In this document: positions 55 through 6,248 of the stretch, one piece after another
How positions within the stretch are numbered: the stretch's first letter is position 1
How the letters are laid out: each line of letters begins with the position of its first letter
Notes under the pieces: generated by a model
The model's input: the letters and a program-made list of their open reading frames with translations, nothing else
Databases searched by the model: none
What the model was told of the DNA's origin: nothing
IMG/VR virus record: IMGVR_UViG_2687453529_000005
Source of the DNA: a virus
Lineage: Duplodnaviria > Heunggongvirae > Uroviricota > Caudoviricetes
DNA: 6,844 bases
Strand: one strand, 5' to 3'
Translations under genes and position numbers: made by a program

Positions 55-402
55 TTACGAATTACTGCGGCGCTGTTGCTTTTCCGCATGTACGCGTTTC
101 ACAATCTTATAAATCCATTGCAGCGTCAGATTATATTTCTTCGCTAATTCGGCGTAGTTGCGCCCATCGCACTCGCTATAGATTTGGTAGTCACGCTCCG
201 ATGCTCGTCCGGAGATCCCCTTAGGGAAATAGATGCTTTGTCCGCCCCAGTTACGCATCATTCGGTCGGCAATGGCAAAACCCACATTTTCTGCCGATGA
301 ACTGTCGAGATTGATGCTTTCAATCAGAACTTGCGATGCATGAAAAGCCAGGTCGTTAATGATCTCCGGTGTCCGGGCCATCTCTTTTGATTTTCGTATC
401 AT
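55..402 (-). CDS. Mor/C-family transcriptional activator (phage middle/late gene activator)
   Basis: 115-aa ORF with the Mor/C signature as I recall it from Mu Mor: ...GGQSIYFPKG...RD..IY...DGRNY.ELAKKYNLTLQWIYKIVKR (C-terminal HTH). GGAG Shine-Dalgarno about 8 nt upstream of the ATG at 400-402 on the minus strand. Oriented divergently from the lysis/tail genes. Confidence 0.8.
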   Translation of the reverse strand: MIRKSKEMARTPEIINDLAFHASQVLIESINLDSSSAENVGFAIADRMMRNWGGQSIYFPKGISGRASERDYQIYSECDGRNYAELAKKYNLTLQWIYKIVKRVHAEKQQRRSNS

Positions 403-623
403 TTTTCATCTCCATATATCTTGCATCCTGAATAAGACCCGATGCGTGTAAAACCACGGATATACGCTAAGCAGTTGTCATTACTGCTACTCAATACATT
501 CAATAAACAAATAAACAATCACCAAAAATATAAACTTTTAATATTAATGAACGTCATAAATTCACGAAATAAATATATTGTTTGGATTATGTTTCTTATC
601 AACAGGAGTATCATTTTACACTA

Positions 624-643
624 TACTGTATACATATACAGTA
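624..643. promoter_or_regulatory. Candidate LexA (SOS) box
   Basis: TACTGTATACATATACAGTA matches the E. coli LexA consensus TACTGTATATATATACAGTA at 19 of 20 positions, with CTGT-N8-ACAG intact. It overlaps a possible rightward sigma70 promoter (-35 TCAACA at 599-604, 17-bp spacer, -10 TATACT at 622-627). Lies in the AT-rich divergent region between the Mor-like gene and the lysis operon. Confidence 0.65.
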
Positions 644-939
644 TTATTTTTACCTGTAGAGTAAAAAGATCGTTTCCCTCACAGTCGCTGACTTTCTTAA
701 ACAAACTTTAAAAATCAAATAACTATCGACTATTCCTACGATCCACCATCATCTTTCCCCTGCATAATGACGCGCTTATTAGCCTGGTCACCTTTTGCTC
801 TTTAATTGCTGAGTCGATTTATTAGCGGGCTTGTTCATTTATAGAGAATCTATTTTTTAAACTTATTTATTAAAGCTTTTTTCATTCTTCACTGGCGGGG
901 TCTGACGACACTAAACGCTCACTTATCAGGAGATATCGT

Positions 940-1227
940 ATGAAAAAAGTCACTTTTCCCCGGCTTTCCGGCTGGCTAGTCGCTTCCGCCGCGCTGTTTG
1001 TCGTGATCGGCTGGACCTCTTCCGCACAGATCCCGGTCGTCATTTATAAACTAAGCCTGGTTTCGCTTTCCGCGGTGCTGGGATACTGGCTCGATCGCAG
1101 TTTGTTCCCCTGGGCACGGCCTGACTCTTTTAGCCCCTGGAAGGAACCTCGTTGCTGCGCGGCGGCAATGATTCGCCGCGCCATCATCGTTGCCGCCGTC
1201 TGTCTTTCCGTCGCCTTAGGGCTATAG
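940..1227 (+). CDS. Small membrane protein, holin candidate (first gene of lysis cassette)
   Basis: 95 aa with two to three hydrophobic helices (LSGWLVASAALFVVIGW; LSLVSLSAVLGYWL; AIIVAAVCLSVALGL). Strong SD AGGAGA 7 nt before the ATG. GC-rich with high third-position GC. Stop TAG at 1225-1227 lies 4 nt before the start of the next gene. The overlapping minus-strand ORF 1044-1442 is judged spurious. Confidence 0.55.
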   Translation: MKKVTFPRLSGWLVASAALFVVIGWTSSAQIPVVIYKLSLVSLSAVLGYWLDRSLFPWARPDSFSPWKEPRCCAAAMIRRAIIVAAVCLSVALGL

Positions 1228-1231
1228 TGAT

Positions 1232-1837
1232 GTGGCTGAAATATATCGCGTCTATGATTATTTTCGTTCTTTTCCCCGCTTAACCGCCTCTGAACCGCCG
1301 CGAGCCTCTCTGGCATGGCGAAACGAACTAATTCGTACAGCTCGAGAAGTCTGGGGGCTGAATGCTCCAGTGGCCGACTTTGCCGGGCAATTACACCAGG
1401 AGTCCGCCTGGCAGCCAATGGTACGTTCCCCCGTTGGCGCACAAGGTATGGCGCAATTTATGCCTGCTACAGCGACATGGATAAGCCAGTTGTATCCACA
1501 ATTGCGTGAAAACAAACCGTATAACCCAACCTGGGCGATTCGCGCGCTGGTGCAATATGACCAGCATTTGTGGAAAAACATCTCTGCGAAAAATGATTGT
1601 CAGCGTATGGCGTTTACCCTAAGCGCCTATAACGGCGGTCAGGGGTGGGTTAACCGGGATAAAAAACTGGCTGCATCCAAAGGGTTAGATGCCACTAGCT
1701 GGTTTGGTCATGTTGAGCAAGTCAACGCCGGGCGCAGCGCCACGAACTGGCGAGAAAATCGTCGCTATCCAAAGATGATCCTCTATCAACATGCCGCCCG
1801 CTATTTACTCTGGGGACAGGCAAGCTGTCTTCATTAA
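1232..1837 (+). CDS. Lytic transglycosylase (SLT-domain) endolysin
   Basis: 201 aa containing the family-1 lytic transglycosylase motifs in order: catalytic E-S (QLHQESAWQP), GMAQFMP (the GLMQ motif) and SAYNGGQG (the AYNxG motif). GTG start at 1232 is the first start after the in-frame stop at 1217-1219 and is probably translationally coupled to the upstream gene. No N-terminal signal or SAR-like hydrophobic segment. Confidence 0.8.
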   Translation: MAEIYRVYDYFRSFPRLTASEPPRASLAWRNELIRTAREVWGLNAPVADFAGQLHQESAWQPMVRSPVGAQGMAQFMPATATWISQLYPQLRENKPYNPTWAIRALVQYDQHLWKNISAKNDCQRMAFTLSAYNGGQGWVNRDKKLAASKGLDATSWFGHVEQVNAGRSATNWRENRRYPKMILYQHAARYLLWGQASCLH

Positions 1838-1849
1838 TCAGAGGGGCCG

Positions 1850-2164
1850 ATGAAACTCAGTATCGATTTTTGGGAAGTGATCTCCCTTATGCTTTCCTTC
1901 GTTGGATTAATGTTTGCTGCCGGAAAACTGCTGTTAGCACAAATTGAAAAACGACTTAATGAGCGTTTTGAGTCTCTGGAAAATGCCCGCAGGGAATCAG
2001 AAACAAGTTGGTCGAAACTGGAAAGAGAATTTCTCGAATTTCGTGCCGAGCTTCCGCTGCATTATGTCCGCAGAGAAGATTATCTTCGTGGGCAAGCAGT
2101 ATTAGAAGCGAAGCTGGATGCCTTATATAGCAAAATCGAGCTGTTACAACGTGGCAGTTATTGA
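1850..2164 (+). CDS. Membrane-anchored coiled-coil protein; possible i-spanin-like or other lysis accessory protein
   Basis: 104 aa with an N-terminal hydrophobic segment (VISLMLSFVGLMFAAGKLLLA) followed by a highly charged, heptad-like helical region. SD GAGGGG 6 nt upstream of the ATG. Sits directly after the endolysin gene. No embedded or adjacent lipoprotein (o-spanin) ORF was found. Confidence 0.5.
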   Translation: MKLSIDFWEVISLMLSFVGLMFAAGKLLLAQIEKRLNERFESLENARRESETSWSKLEREFLEFRAELPLHYVRREDYLRGQAVLEAKLDALYSKIELLQRGSY

Positions 2165-2202
2165 AAAATCCCCACCCTTATGTAAGGGTGGGGATTTTTT
2201 TA
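2164..2202 (+). terminator. Rho-independent terminator (likely bidirectional)
   Basis: Perfect GC-rich inverted repeat AAAAATCCCCACCCTTA-TG-TAAGGGTGGGGATTTTT followed by a run of 8 T; the A-run on the 5' side gives a U-tract on the opposite strand as well. Lies immediately after the stop of the 1850-2164 gene. Confidence 0.8.
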
Positions 2203-2308: not shown

Positions 2309-2764
2309 ATGGAAATTTTATCTGTAATGAATTCTGTTGTGACCAGATTACGTGAACACAACTCCGAAATGGATATATTTATTTCATCTAAGGATGCCCA
2401 GAAATATATTCCACAGACACAACGAGTTGCAGTGATTATTAATTATAGCGGTTCTGTCTTTGCTACGCCCGAAAGCAGTAATGCCATCGTGCAACAGCAA
2501 ATACTCCGCTTAACCGCCACCGTTATTGTTGGCAAAAATTGTGATGCATTAAACGCACTTGATCACATACGCAGCGCATTGGGTGGCCTTCCGCTTCCTG
2601 ATTGTGATCGTCTGCTTTGGCTTGAAAAAGAAATTAATACGGGTGAGAGCGGCGGTTTCTGCCGCTACATCCTGGAAATGGCGACCAGCTCGCTGTTTAT
2701 CGCTGAACAGGAAAGCACGGATCTTCCCCTGCTTACGGAAGTTAACTACGAGGAAACTGAATGA
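2309..2764 (+). CDS. Putative tail completion / terminator protein (Mu gp37-like position upstream of sheath)
   Basis: 151-aa ORF with AAGG 10 nt upstream of the ATG. Its stop overlaps the next start in an ATGA arrangement (2761-2764). Function is inferred from gene order in Mu/P2-type tail modules, not from a recognised motif. Confidence 0.5.
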   Translation: MEILSVMNSVVTRLREHNSEMDIFISSKDAQKYIPQTQRVAVIINYSGSVFATPESSNAIVQQQILRLTATVIVGKNCDALNALDHIRSALGGLPLPDCDRLLWLEKEINTGESGGFCRYILEMATSSLFIAEQESTDLPLLTEVNYEETE

Positions 2765-2958
2765 AATACATCTACAACGGCCCAGCAAGCGGCGTCACCC
2801 TTGCCGATGGACAAGAAATCTTATTGTGGCCGAACAGTGAAATTGATCTGCCAGAAGACAACGAGTGGGTCATGACCATGATTGCCCGCAATCATCTGAC
2901 TCCTGTCATCACTCAGGAAGAACAAAATAACGTAGAGGAAATTGTACATGGCAGCTAA
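2761..2958 (+). CDS. Small acidic protein of unknown function (Mu gp38-like position)
   Basis: 65-aa ORF translationally coupled at both ends: ATGA overlap with the upstream gene and an 11-nt overlap with the sheath start. No recognisable motif; supported only by operon context. Confidence 0.4.
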   Translation: MKYIYNGPASGVTLADGQEILLWPNSEIDLPEDNEWVMTMIARNHLTPVITQEEQNNVEEIVHGS

Positions 2959-4372
2959 TTATCTGCACGGTGTAGAAACTATTGAAATTGAAACCGGCCC
3001 GCGTCCGGTTAAAGCGGTAAAATCCGCCGTCATCGCTTTAATCGGTACATCCCCCTGCGGTCCGGTAAATAAACCAACATTATGCCTTTCTGAAAGCGAT
3101 GCTGCGCAGTTTGGCTCGACTCAGGCTAACTTTACGATCCCACAGGCACTGAAGGCAATTTATGACCACGGTGCCGGTACGGTGGTGGTGATTAACGTGC
3201 TGGATCCGGCAAAACATGGCTCCAACATCAGCAATGAGAGTATCACTTTTGATGCTAACAACCAGGCGAAGCTCGCTCACCGCAATGTGCGTAACGTGGT
3301 ACTAAAGCCCTCTTCATCAAATTCATCAACCTTTAACACCGCAGCATTTAGCGTAGATGAACAAACAGGCATAATTACCCGTAAAGGAGCCGACATTCCT
3401 CCTGGTGCGAAAGTTTGTGCCTATTATTCCTGGTGCGACCCTACAAAGGTCACCGCAGCCGATATTATCGGTACCGTAAATACCGCAGGCGACCGCACGG
3501 GGATGAAACTCCTTCAGGACACCTATAACCTGTACGGTTTCTACGCCAAAATCCTGCTTGCTCCTGTGTTTTGTACGCAAAAATCGGTGACTACTGAGCT
3601 GATTGCACAAGCGGAAAAACTCGGTGCGATTACCTACATTGATGCCCCGATTGGGACAACATTCCAGCAGGTATTGGCTGGACGCGGTTCGCAAGGGGCT
3701 ATCAACTTCAATACCAGCTCTGATCGTGCGCGTTTATGTTACCCACATGTCAAAGTTTACGATGGCATCACTAACCAGGAAATTCTTGAGCCTCTCTCTT
3801 CGCGTGCTGCCGGGCTGCGTGCCAAAGTAGACCTCGAAAAAGGTTTCTGGTGGAGCAACTCAAACCAGGAAATTCAGGGTATTACCGGTATTGAACGTTC
3901 GCTTTCCGCAATGATTGATGATCCACAAAGCGAAGTGAATCAGCTCAACGAAAACGGCATTACCACTATTTTCAATAGTTACGGCTCTGGTCTGCGCTTG
4001 TGGGGTAACCGCACAGCGGCATGGCCTACCGTGACCCATATGCGTAACTTTGAAAACGTCCGCCGGACAGGCGATGTAATCAATGAGTCAATCCGTTATT
4101 TCAGTCAGCAGTATATTGATATGCCGATTAATCAGGCACTTATTGACGCGCTGACCGAATCGGTAAATACCTGGGGCCGAAAACTGATTGCCGACGGCGC
4201 ACTGCTTGGCTTTGAGTGCTGGTACGATCCGGCACGAAATTCACCGGCTGAACTCAGCGCCGGGCATTTATTGCTGAGCTATAAATTCACCCCGCCACCG
4301 CCGCTGGAACGTCTGACGTTTGAAACTGAAATTACTTCTGAATATTTAGTCTCTCTGGAGAGCAATAGCTAA
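2948..4372 (+). CDS. Contractile tail sheath protein (P2 FI / Mu L family)
   Basis: N-terminus MAANYLHGVETIEIETGPRPVKAVKSAVIALIGTSP matches the conserved sheath N-terminal pattern (HGV..E...G.R.I...S.A..G.VGT) as recalled for P2 FI and Mu L. About 474 aa. SD GAGGAA 7 nt upstream of the ATG at 2948; the ORF track's TTG at 2942 is less likely. Stop overlaps the tube start (TAATG). Confidence 0.9.
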   Translation: MAANYLHGVETIEIETGPRPVKAVKSAVIALIGTSPCGPVNKPTLCLSESDAAQFGSTQANFTIPQALKAIYDHGAGTVVVINVLDPAKHGSNISNESITFDANNQAKLAHRNVRNVVLKPSSSNSSTFNTAAFSVDEQTGIITRKGADIPPGAKVCAYYSWCDPTKVTAADIIGTVNTAGDRTGMKLLQDTYNLYGFYAKILLAPVFCTQKSVTTELIAQAEKLGAITYIDAPIGTTFQQVLAGRGSQGAINFNTSSDRARLCYPHVKVYDGITNQEILEPLSSRAAGLRAKVDLEKGFWWSNSNQEIQGITGIERSLSAMIDDPQSEVNQLNENGITTIFNSYGSGLRLWGNRTAAWPTVTHMRNFENVRRTGDVINESIRYFSQQYIDMPINQALIDALTESVNTWGRKLIADGALLGFECWYDPARNSPAELSAGHLLLSYKFTPPPPLERLTFETEITSEYLVSLESNS

Positions 4373-4896
4373 TGGCTGGAAAAATTCAAATTAACCGTAT
4401 TACCAACGCCAATATTTATCTCGATGGTAATAACCTTTTAGGTCGTGCAACAGAAATTAAATTGCCGGATGTAAGTTTAATTATGCAGGAGCATAAAGCA
4501 CTGGGCATGGTGGGTAAAATCGAACTCCCGGCAGGTTTCGATAAACTGGAGGGCGAAATTAAATGGAACTCCTTCTATCAGGACGTAATGCGTAAAACGG
4601 CAAACCCGTGGCAGGCGGTTGCATTACAGTGCCGCTCCAGTATTGATTGCTATAACTCCCAGGGGAAAGCGAATCAATTAGCGCTAGTGACACATTTAAC
4701 CGTGATGTTTAAAAAGAATCCACTGGGCACATTTAAACAGAATGAAAACCCGGAATTCAGCAGCGCCTTTGGTTGCACTTATATTAAACAAGTAGTTGAT
4801 GGTGAAACGCTGCTTGAACTTGATTATATGGCCAATATTTTCCGGGTTAATGGTGTGGATCAATTAAGTACCTATCGCAATAACATCGGTGGCTAA
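4372..4896 (+). CDS. Tail tube protein (P2 FII / Mu M family)
   Basis: 174 aa; C-terminus ...FRVNGVDQLSTYRNNIGG closely resembles the P2 FII C-terminus as recalled (...VNGVD.L...R.NIGL). Immediately follows the sheath gene with a 1-nt overlap. Confidence 0.9.
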   Translation: MAGKIQINRITNANIYLDGNNLLGRATEIKLPDVSLIMQEHKALGMVGKIELPAGFDKLEGEIKWNSFYQDVMRKTANPWQAVALQCRSSIDCYNSQGKANQLALVTHLTVMFKKNPLGTFKQNENPEFSSAFGCTYIKQVVDGETLLELDYMANIFRVNGVDQLSTYRNNIGG

Positions 4897-4900
4897 GTTA

Positions 4901-4920
4901 TTCGGGGCTACGGCCCCGAA
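4901..4920 (+). other. Stem-loop between tube and chaperone genes (possible attenuator or mRNA-stabilising hairpin)
   Basis: TTCGGGGC-TACG-GCCCCGAA is a perfect 8-bp GC-rich stem with a 4-nt loop, 5 nt after the tube stop, followed only by CTTT (weak U-tract). Confidence 0.35.
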
Positions 4921-4946
4921 CTTTGCAAAATAAATAAGGACACAAA

Positions 4947-5264
4947 ATGAAAGAACATTATATCTTGCAGTTTCCATTTACGTCGGCAGCAGGAAATAAT
5001 ATCGACACGCTGCAATTACGTCGCCTGAAAGTAAAAGATATGCGCAACGCCCGCCGGATCAGCGAAAAGCCAGAAGAGTGGGATGAACCGCTGATGGCGG
5101 CGATGACCGGACTGGTGCCAGAAGATTTAGCCGAAATGGATTTGCTGGATTACCAGGCATTGCAGAAACGATTTCAATCCATGCTTACCGTGGTTACAGA
5201 ATCCTCCCCTGCTATGGCAGGCAATGGCGCTACTGGCGAGATGGTTTCGCTTTCCGCCCAGTGA
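4947..5264 (+). CDS. Tail assembly chaperone (P2 gpE-like)
   Basis: 105-aa ORF between the tube and tape measure genes, the conserved position of the tail chaperone. SD AAGGA 9 nt upstream. Similarity to P2 gpE is from recall only and is loose; ends ...SLSAQ. Confidence 0.7.
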   Translation: MKEHYILQFPFTSAAGNNIDTLQLRRLKVKDMRNARRISEKPEEWDEPLMAAMTGLVPEDLAEMDLLDYQALQKRFQSMLTVVTESSPAMAGNGATGEMVSLSAQ

Positions 5265-5352
5265 GATAGACGCCCTTACCGTCGATGACTTTAGCAACTG
5301 GCTGGATGAAGCCAGCGCCCAAATAAAAATCGAATATGACTCGCAGACCTGA
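5131..5352 (+). other. Open +1 frame overlapping the chaperone 3' end and extending about 29 codons past its stop (candidate E-prime-type frameshift extension or small overlapping ORF)
   Basis: The frame shifted +1 relative to the chaperone is stop-free from 5131 to the TGA at 5350-5352 and reads ...MALLARWFRFPPSEIDALTVDDFSNWLDEASAQIKIEYDSQT. The -1 frame hits TAG at 5267-5269. An internal ATG at 5224 could alternatively initiate a 42-codon ORF. Confidence 0.4.
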
Positions 5353-5453
5353 TGTCTGCGAGTTTCCCAAGCCCGTCAGGTTTATTTCTTCCCTGCCCCT
5401 TTTTTTAGAAAAATAACCAGCGGGCCATTATCAATATTTAAAGAGAAACAATT

Positions 5454-6248
5454 TTGGCCAACGATATTATTACCCAGCTTCAGGCGCGTAATGAGACGTT
5501 GACGCAGGCAATAGCCCGTTACGGCTCACTCAACGCCAGAACATTGTTAACTCTCTCTACTCAGCAGGCGACAGTTATCAAACTAACGCAGCAGCTTGCC
5601 GATTCCGCTCTCCGCCTGGAGGAAAATAGCCGCAGCCGCGCTAATCTGATGGAGAAAACCCAAACATTTGCCGGGCAATTTAGCAAAGTATTCAATGTTG
5701 AAGCCCCCGACTGGAAGTTGCCGTATGAGTTTCAGGACAACATGGTCAATATGGCGACCAAAGGTGGGATGAATGCTACAACCCGCGAGACGCTCAGCCT
5801 TAATCTGCGCGACTGGAGCATGGATTTTAACCAGCAGCAGACCACCTTACAGAACGCAGCCCAAACGCTGATCGAAGGCAATTTGTCGTCGATGCAGGAT
5901 CTCAACCGTTATATGCCGGAGATCGCCAAAGCTGCCACCGCCACGCGCGAAAGTGCTGAAACGTGGGCGAATGCCGCGCTCGCGACTCATGATCGACTGA
6001 ATATTGCCCCGGAAAATTTCCACGCCGCGCAAAACATGATGTACGGCATTAGCAAAAGCGGTGGGCCTGCCATTGCTGAACAAACGCAGTGGATAGAGAA
6101 ATTTGCAGGTAAAACCGGCGCTCAGGGTCTGGAAGGTATGGCTGAACTGACTGCCGCCATGCAGATCGCAATGAAAAATGGGGCCAGCGCCAGTGCGGCG
6201 GCGGAGAATTTTGAAATGATTTACTGGAGAGTTTATCAAAAGCGTTAA
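5454..6248 (+). pseudogene. Tail tape measure protein, N-terminal fragment only (truncated by deletion)
   Basis: TTG start after the chaperone, in the expected tape measure position, with Ala/Gln-rich helical sequence typical of tape measure N-termini. The ORF stops after about 264 codons, far too short for a sheathed-tail tape measure, and its last ~11 codons (..EMIYWRVYQKR) are read out of frame from cadC-like sequence. Confidence 0.6.

Follow-up and report, generated by a model that had tools for sequence, protein, structure and literature searches.

The stretch of DNA analysed here, IMG/VR record IMGVR_UViG_2687453529_000005 (6844 bases; hereafter the window), is Escherichia coli chromosomal DNA whose first base lies just past the stop codon of lysC, and it contains a three-gene lysis cassette (940-2164) placed between a Mor-family transcription activator gene and a block of contractile-tail genes. 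The identities, orthology and order of these genes, the absence of the spanin genes Rz and Rz1, the head-less architecture and the conservation of the cluster under purifying selection probably identify 940-2164 as the lysis cassette of an R-type tailocin-like contractile-tail cluster, descended from a BcepMu-like transposable phage and related to carotovoricin. The cassette is a known type in a variant form, in which the spanins have been lost and a gp25-like gene is retained within a tailocin-like cluster. The copy carried by the window is defective: insertions cut the endolysin signal off from the catalytic domain, and the truncated tail module runs into the host gene cadC, to which it is fused. 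The cassette and its immediate surroundings comprise the following features, described with reference to the common allele of this E. coli element (locus L001):

940..1227, plus strand: putative holin, 95 aa (PF13272, PHROG 1528, hydropathy)
1230..1283, plus strand: remnant of the endolysin start and signal (ATG and 17 codons, MWLKYIASMIIFVLFPA, stop), from the alignment with the common allele
1274..1285, plus strand: two single-C insertions causing a frameshift, from the alignment with the common allele
1232..1837, plus strand: SLT-domain lytic transglycosylase (endolysin), 201 aa, GTG start (PF01464, PHROG 669, alignment with 10 relatives)
1850..2164, plus strand: BcepMu gp25-family protein, 104 aa (PHROG 462, orthology, gene position)
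2163..2200, plus strand: intrinsic terminator hairpin (RNA folding)

An original prediction made on this DNA had already delineated the same three open reading frames (ORFs), at 940-1227, 1232-1837 and 1850-2164, and had read them as a lysis cassette with the 95-aa membrane protein as the holin candidate; both points hold. The 940-1227 product matches Pfam PF13272 Holin_2-3 (E=1e-26, 93.6 bits vs a cut-off of 27) and PHROG 1528 'holin' (E=6e-34), with an SLT-domain gene as its neighbour; NCBIfam returns nothing useful for either this protein or the 104-aa protein. Hydropathy discloses three hydrophobic segments (~11-27, 31-50, and 73-95), corresponding to two or three transmembrane domains (TMDs), and the amino acid identity amounts to 59% with the BcepMu gp21 holin and 82% with the Enterobacter copy. 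By family membership the 95-aa protein is thus a holin candidate, and might form holes in the inner membrane or depolarise it.

The base composition of the three genes is heterogeneous, with 58.0% GC in the holin gene, 52.0% in the SLT gene and 42.9% in the third gene, compared to 41.7-52.8% in the tail genes and 33-36% in the flanking intergenic DNA; overall, the lysis cassette has 51.2% GC vs 47.9% for the tail block. The earlier statement that all three lysis genes are GC-richer than the tail genes is therefore correct for the holin gene, the only one that stands out, and fails for the third gene, which falls under the tail average. Nor is the mosaic acquisition proposed on that basis borne out, as one and the same Enterobacter element provides the closest copy of each of the three genes and the gene order is collinear with that of the BcepMu-type cassette; for the same reason, a separate import of the E. 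coli holin gene from a GC-richer relative is rejected for the relatives sampled. The GC content at third codon positions (GC3) nonetheless follows a real and unexplained gradient across the E. coli cassette (holin 0.66, SLT 0.52, gp25-like 0.38), whereas the Enterobacter orthologues (locus L008 9090-10315) are uniform at 0.35-0.39, though their products are 69-82% identical in amino acid sequence.

The endolysin belongs to the SLT family of lytic transglycosylases (PF01464 SLT, E=9e-15; PHROG 669 'endolysin', E=1e-60), and its catalytic domain is intact in the window, with the QES...GMAQFMP...AYNGG motifs in place. HQES, GMAQFMP and AYNGG, including the catalytic Glu-Ser motif, are conserved across 11 aligned endolysin sequences. 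The canonical start codon is the ATG at window position 1230, located 2 nt after the holin stop codon and 8 nt downstream of an AGGG Shine-Dalgarno sequence (1218-1221), and it encodes a hydrophobic leader (MWLKYIASMIIFVLFP...). In the common allele the equivalent ATG opens a 201-aa ORF beginning MWLKYIASMIIFVLFPLNASEPP, and the start annotated in RefSeq differs by 2 nt from that of the GTG-1232 ORF of the window. The window carries extra C's at two places, CCCC for CCC at 1274-1277 and CC for C at 1284/1285; because of these, the ATG-1230 frame stops after 17 codons and GTG 1232 offers the sole access to the catalytic domain. The two insertions occur in 0/196 of the complete E. coli genomes with the element, the best identity being 98.8%, with the shortfall made up by the two gaps. 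Over 6.2 kb, the window and the common allele show three differences only, all within 900-1285 (the third is G900T, in the spacer between the Mor and holin genes), and the 4.9 kb of tail genes are identical.

The ORF opened by GTG 1232 has no hydrophobic segment (maximum 19-residue hydropathy 0.53), so that the hydrophilic N-terminus of the original prediction is accurately described for this ORF, but it is the product of the two C insertions. A hydrophobic N-terminal segment is present in every intact endolysin examined, from the 196 complete E. coli genomes with the element and from Enterobacter, Salmonella, Pectobacterium, Yersinia, BcepMu, PhiKM, and B3. This leader is short and strongly hydrophobic (13-residue hydropathy of 2.1-3.2) and is followed by an A-x-A-like site (LNA/S, AEA/K, ANA/A, VCA/D) just ahead of the conserved domain. 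Its occurrence in all intact relatives argues for an endolysin family that is Sec-exported by means of an N-terminal Sec-type or signal-anchor-release (SAR) signal. The signal-less endolysin of the window is thus best read as a frameshift private to the window, and the proposal that the enzyme lacks an export signal and needs a true holin is not borne out.

The 104-aa protein matches PHROG 462 (labelled 'lipoprotein') and has no Pfam or NCBIfam match; the original prediction had named membership in a non-lysis family as the result that would speak against a lysis role, and the protein matches no curated family at all. In tblastn comparisons with phage genomes, it is 45-54% identical to BcepMu gp25, B3 ORF28, and the 'membrane protein' of PhiKM/KP12. 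The gene order in BcepMu, B3 and PhiKM/KP12 is holin, SLT endolysin, Rz (with embedded Rz1), gp25-like, Mu gp26-like, and TerS; the BcepMu-like prophages of Salmonella and Yersinia preserve this order, as does carotovoricin, minus TerS, lost with the head genes. Judged by similarity and position, the 104-aa protein is an orthologue of BcepMu gp25 and not of Rz, since the relatives encode both. The gp25-like family is large, comprising at least 958 representative clusters (50% identity) at E<=0.001; the contigs of its very distant members are too short to show an endolysin. Between E. coli and Enterobacter, the gp25-like gene has a ratio of nonsynonymous to synonymous substitution rates (Ka/Ks) of 0.09.

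The architecture of the 104-aa protein comprises (i) an N-terminal TMD (~7-29) and (ii) a predicted cytoplasmic helical domain, with the invariant family motif LPxxYVRREDYxRGQxxIEAKLDA. The AlphaFold model (mean pLDDT 78.7) consists of two helices, 7-67 and 75-102, joined by a loop that falls at the invariant LPxxYVRRED motif. Across 22 gp25-like members, the N-terminal flank of the TMD is acidic (0-1 K/R, 1-2 D/E) and the C-terminal flank contains 2-4 K/R (mean difference +2.4), a pattern shared by Mu gp25, whereas the i-spanins of BcepMu-type relatives have basic N-flanks with few or no acidic residues. The predicted topology of the gp25-like family is therefore N-out/C-in, opposite to that of an i-spanin, which leaves only ~6 residues of the 104-aa protein in the periplasm. 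A fold search with the model finds no match in the PDB and one meaningless match in BFVD, and the sequence-profile search of the PDB returns only coiled-coil noise (E about 0.7). The 'lipoprotein' label of PHROG 462 and of RefSeq phage records looks wrong, because the family has no conserved cysteine; it seems to stem from a chance LGAC within the TMD of B3 ORF28 (locus L006 2501-2890), whose cysteine is not conserved in the family alignment, and the protein of the window is devoid of any cysteine.

Membership of the 104-aa protein among the i-spanins, to which the original prediction had likened it, is accordingly rejected on predicted topology, on the missing cognate o-spanin and on orthology, the protein being a gp25 orthologue that coexists with Rz/Rz1 in relatives. 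The resemblance to lambda Rz/Rz1 is superficial and concerns Rz only, in that the lysis cassette ends with a small protein whose N-terminal TMD leads into long helices; the 104-aa protein differs in its opposite predicted topology, in having no lipoprotein partner, and in being non-orthologous to the Rz of related phages. The suggestion that it may be a different kind of lysis accessory protein, also made at the outset, is the best reading.

No o-spanin accompanies the cassette, in agreement with the original prediction. A lipobox scan of all nested ORFs detects none on the plus strand of the window, where the ORF from ATG 1959 (+1 frame, nested in the 1944-2105 ORF) also lacks one, and none that is credible in the intact CE10 element as a whole. 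The identical scan recovered the embedded proline-rich Rz1 in six relatives, BcepMu, B3, and PhiKM and those from Salmonella, Pectobacterium, and Yersinia, and a census of spanins assigns embedded two-component systems to both BcepMu/phiE255 and B3/JBD (PMC6139136). In the window, only 12 nt separate the endolysin stop codon from the start of the 104-aa gene. Given that the pair is present in the parental phages, Rz/Rz1 has been deleted in the E. coli element, and the whole pair is absent from this tailocin-cluster lineage.

The cassette is embedded in a cluster whose remaining parts in the window are as follows:

55..402, minus strand: Mor-family transcription activator (PF08765 Mor, E=7e-38; PHROG 532 'late transcriptional activator'; RefSeq annotation in relatives)
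403..939, no strand assigned: Mor-holin intergenic region, 537 bp, AT-rich (33% GC), presumed regulatory
2309..6213, plus strand: proximal half of the contractile-tail module (Pfam matches; identical to the common allele throughout), made up of the six genes below
2309-2764, plus strand: Gp37
2761-2958, plus strand: 65-aa protein
2942-4372, plus strand: sheath
4372-4896, plus strand: tube
4947-5264, plus strand: tail assembly chaperone, with the overlapping ORF 5224-5352
5454-6213, plus strand: tape-measure fragment
6214..6844, plus strand: 3' part of host cadC (cadC matches begin at 6214), joined directly to the truncated tape-measure gene

The Mor gene is divergent from the lysis cassette and abuts the 3' end of lysC; in the spacer between it and the holin gene (403-939), a scan for sigma-70-like promoter sites finds them no commoner than in shuffled sequences. 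The hairpin at 2163-2200 folds at -26.9 kcal/mol (z=-5.2), a value reached by 0/200 shuffles, and is flanked by an A-run and a T-run, being bidirectional in form; the terminator scan also detects it on the minus strand. It separates the lysis cassette from the tail genes at the point where the parental phages keep the head genes. Within the tail module, the 42-aa ORF at 5224-5352 lies in another frame and overlaps that of the tail assembly chaperone (PF10109 in relatives), the layout expected of a programmed frameshift product of the P2 gpE/E' type.

In CE10, the interval from lysC to yjbD comprises Mor, the three-gene lysis cassette, and tail genes extending from Gp37 to baseplate, fibre, and chaperone, with no head, packaging, transposase, replication or integration genes. 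The Enterobacter cloacae complex and Superficieibacter share both this arrangement and its locus, and the lysC-linked cluster is found in ~3.6% of complete E. coli genomes (196 genomes). Between E. coli and Enterobacter the synonymous sites are saturated, with a divergence similar to that of host lysC, and Ka/Ks is 0.03-0.20 for the cluster genes where Ks could be estimated; the cluster is under purifying selection. The tail module is complete and intact in most copies. The gene content of an R-type tailocin, that is a tail module, lysis genes, and a regulator in the absence of head genes, is found in the intact copies, the window being truncated at 6213. The published 'ST131 tailocin' and kosakonicin were considered as possible identities of the cluster and rejected, both being P2-type clusters.

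The closest phage counterpart is the cassette of BcepMu (gp21 holin, gp22 SLT, gp23/gp24 Rz/Rz1, gp25) and its relatives B3, PhiKM, KP12, and phiE255, which comprises the same families in the same order, with amino acid identities to BcepMu of 59% for the PF13272 holin, 54% for the SLT endolysin, and 50% for gp25, and a Mor-family regulator common to both. The E. coli element differs in (i) the absence of Rz/Rz1 (gp23/gp24) and of a gp26-like gene, (ii) a holin that lacks ~20 residues of the loop before the last TMD, and (iii) the absence of head, transposase or replication genes. Carotovoricin Er of Pectobacterium, cited as a proven R-type tailocin (Yamada et al. 2006, as cited in PMC11974492 and PMC13195805), offers a second comparison; the Pectobacterium locus examined here is bounded upstream by a TolC-like gene and corresponds to the carotovoricin cluster (PMC13195805). 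It is likewise a head-less contractile-tail cluster derived from the same BcepMu/Salmonella-prophage lineage, with holin and lytic transglycosylase first, a gp25-like gene, and then Gp37, the 65-aa protein, sheath, and tube, and its lysis proteins are 59-64% identical to those of E. coli. On the other hand, carotovoricin keeps Rz with an embedded Rz1 and a gp26-like gene, and is located between tolC_2 and ybiB, not beside lysC, with no Mor gene seen at its upstream edge. A contig (L018, 1-12315) displays a head-less, Rz-less late region (holin, SLT, gp25-like, Gp37, sheath...) that is still joined to the early region of a transposable phage (Mor, MuB-like ATPase, rve transposase, repressor), and may represent an intermediate between prophage and tailocin cluster.

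The cluster is also a frequent insertion target. CE10 carries ClbS/DfsB and ISEc53 between Mor and the holin gene, and its tape-measure gene contains an internal stop (L007 17665-19422, 24275-26650); it also has nucleotidyltransferase-domain and slipin-family genes on the opposite strand, between the fibre chaperone and yjbD (L007 34578-36502), which may be a cargo or defence pair. In FDAARGOS_497, a 16-kb ISEcp1/IS26 resistance island (CTX-M-15, OXA-1, aac(3)-IIe, tetA) resides inside the tape-measure gene (L001 26598-43122).

The window itself departs from this organisation at 6213|6214, where the tail cluster is cut inside the tape-measure gene and followed by the 3' part of cadC, a junction spanned by no complete E. 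coli genome; the direct fusion to cadC marks the window copy as a translocated, incomplete fragment. A similar, though not identical, arrangement is displayed by WB61 (locus L002 2070-12722), in the order cadC', ISEcp1, bla fragment, the 3' part of lysC, Mor, lysis and tail genes, tape-measure fragment, and the rest of cadC, in addition to a normal copy at lysC. The layout in WB61 suggests that ISEcp1 carried part of the cluster into cadC. This cadC-linked copy bears two deletions, of 49 bp (window 894-942), which removes the ribosome-binding site and ATG of the holin gene, and of 66 bp (window 1236-1301), which removes the endolysin signal. The lesions of the two translocated copies, in the window and in WB61, suggest real inactivating mutations, and may reflect selection against lysis-gene expression downstream of the outward promoter of ISEcp1.

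The position and architecture of the 104-aa protein invite a comparison with the releasin of phage Mu. Mu gp25 (DUF2730, PF10805) comprises an N-terminal TMD and a cytoplasmic domain and is needed to release the Mu SAR endolysin (Chamblee et al. 2022, PMC9239132); its gene sits between the spanins and gp26/gp27. Both proteins have ~100 aa, a single N-terminal TMD, an N-out/C-in topology, and a cytoplasmic helical domain (these being predictions for the 104-aa protein), and the endolysin that accompanies each of them has an N-terminal membrane or export segment. The gene positions also correspond, each gene following that of the endolysin at a distance of a few genes and immediately preceding gp26/TerS in a transposable phage: in BcepMu, B3, PhiKM, and the Salmonella and Yersinia prophages, the gp25-like gene follows the endolysin by 1-4 genes and immediately precedes gp26-like/TerS, and in the window it is the next gene after that of the endolysin. 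In contrast, the 104-aa protein shows no sequence or profile similarity to Mu gp25, and the endolysin here is a transglycosylase with a cleavable-looking leader. The DUF2730 profile of Pfam gives no match to the gp25-like family at E<=10 (4 members) or E<=1 (46 diverse members), with Mu gp25 itself scoring 2.5e-13, and hhalign against the Mu gp25 family alignment, which covers Mu-type (type I) DUF2730 only, yields probabilities of 0.7% and 3%. Membership of the 104-aa protein in DUF2730 is thus rejected on sequence grounds by the Pfam scans and the two hhalign runs. Lcc6 of LambdaSo, another small membrane protein needed at the holin step (bioRxiv 10.1101/2024.01.23.576932), shows that extra factors at this step exist.

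In the mechanism proposed for intact copies, which we consider likely as a whole, the Mor-family activator would switch the cassette on, and the PF13272 holin, with its two or three TMDs, would build up in the inner membrane. The SLT transglycosylase would be exported by its N-terminal Sec-type or SAR signal, its action being gated by holin-driven permeabilisation or depolarisation of the membrane. The 104-aa protein, anchored by its one N-terminal helix with the conserved helical domain in the cytoplasm, would act at the inner-membrane step, either in holin timing or in endolysin release, occupying the slot of the Mu releasin gp25. With the Rz/Rz1 pair, which lies between endolysin and gp25 in the parental phages, deleted, the outer membrane would have to yield without a dedicated spanin.

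Several considerations weigh against this reading. The activity of the holin, the export mode of the endolysin, the role of the 104-aa protein, and the production of tail particles are all deduced from sequence, and in the literature searchable here no paper was found that describes tail particles from the E. coli/Enterobacter locus, or the locus itself. The endolysin leader resembles a cleavable signal peptide more closely than it does a classic Gly/Ala-rich SAR domain, and the Mu releasin works in a holin-less system, whereas BcepMu-type cassettes have a holin. In the PDB and BFVD searches, the gp25-like family has no relative of solved or viral predicted structure; together with the lack of a detectable relation to DUF2730, this means that a releasin-like role is argued from position, architecture, and retention. 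The loss of the spanins could instead mean inefficient lysis or dependence on other prophages.

The alternatives differ in which part of this reading they replace. A non-lysis function of the 104-aa protein, as a leftover between lysis and packaging genes, or in regulation, or in tail-particle assembly or release unrelated to envelope disruption, seems rather unlikely. It would fit the lack of functional data and of a curated family match, the position of the gp25-like gene directly upstream of the gp26-like and terminase small-subunit genes in complete phages, and the retention of a gp26-like gene by carotovoricin. However, the gp25-like gene is kept, at the low Ka/Ks given above, in head-less clusters that lost every packaging and head gene, it encodes a membrane-anchored product, it shares with the holin and endolysin genes a transcription unit that a terminator ends ahead of the tail genes, and it lies in the slot of the Mu releasin (PMC9239132). 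Its retention while heads and spanins were lost is therefore taken to argue for service in lysis rather than in head assembly; for a role of any kind in lysis we regard the chances as evenly balanced, and a function as releasin or holin co-factor, drawn by analogy, is a narrower and unlikely proposal. Far less probable still is the model in which a signal-less, cytoplasmic SLT endolysin needs a canonical large-hole holin and the 104-aa protein is an orphan i-spanin, with the o-spanin missing or of a new type. The absence of a hydrophobic segment from the GTG-1232 ORF and the i-spanin-like succession of a TMD and long helices would suit it; the private origin of the frameshift, the orthology with gp25 in relatives that also encode Rz, and the predicted topology with its few periplasmic residues oppose it.

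Two further explanations concern the state of the DNA rather than the roles of the proteins. The two extra C's might be sequencing or assembly errors, that is homopolymer miscalls, in a strain whose endolysin gene is intact, which is possible but somewhat doubtful. Both changes lengthen C homopolymers, as is typical of long-read consensus errors, they are found in no other genome, and a duplicated copy in the source genome, as in WB61, would hamper consensus calling. Nevertheless, the three differences are confined to the lysis region, with the tail genes spared, and in WB61 the copy linked to cadC bears separate lesions at these same two sites, a pattern that suggests selection against lysis genes in translocated copies. 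That the whole cluster is a functionless, decaying prophage remnant, its spanins and heads missing through random decay, is improbable. The window copy is plainly dead, with its frameshift and truncated tape measure, and the tape-measure gene is interrupted by the internal stop in CE10, which also has an IS insertion, and by the resistance island at L001; yet three genera carry this gene set at one and the same chromosomal position, synonymous sites are saturated and Ka/Ks is <=0.2 for the genes with estimable Ks, the complete tail module is intact in most copies, and carotovoricin, to which the cluster is related, has been proven to be a tailocin (PMC11974492, PMC13195805).

The lysis cassette of a tailocin-like cluster thus remains the preferred reading of 940-2164, and it holds two lessons for annotation: a TMD and helices do not suffice to make the last protein of a lysis cassette an i-spanin, and an endolysin that seems 'signal-less' can owe this to a frameshift in a single strain. 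It also draws attention to a large uncharacterised family exactly at the place of the Mu releasin, kept under selection in the head-less tail clusters of E. coli, Enterobacter, and Pectobacterium, and provides a tractable E. coli system in which to ask whether proteins outside DUF2730 can act like releasins and by what route a tailocin producer that has no spanins gets through its outer membrane. As a tentative extension, which we hold to be unlikely as it stands, the BcepMu gp25/PHROG 462 family may constitute a second inner-membrane class of lysis factors, unrelated in sequence to DUF2730, acting as a releasin analogue or holin co-factor for signal-bearing SLT endolysins. If this were true, the tailocin lineage would free its particles by a holin-endolysin-gp25 pathway that needs no spanin.

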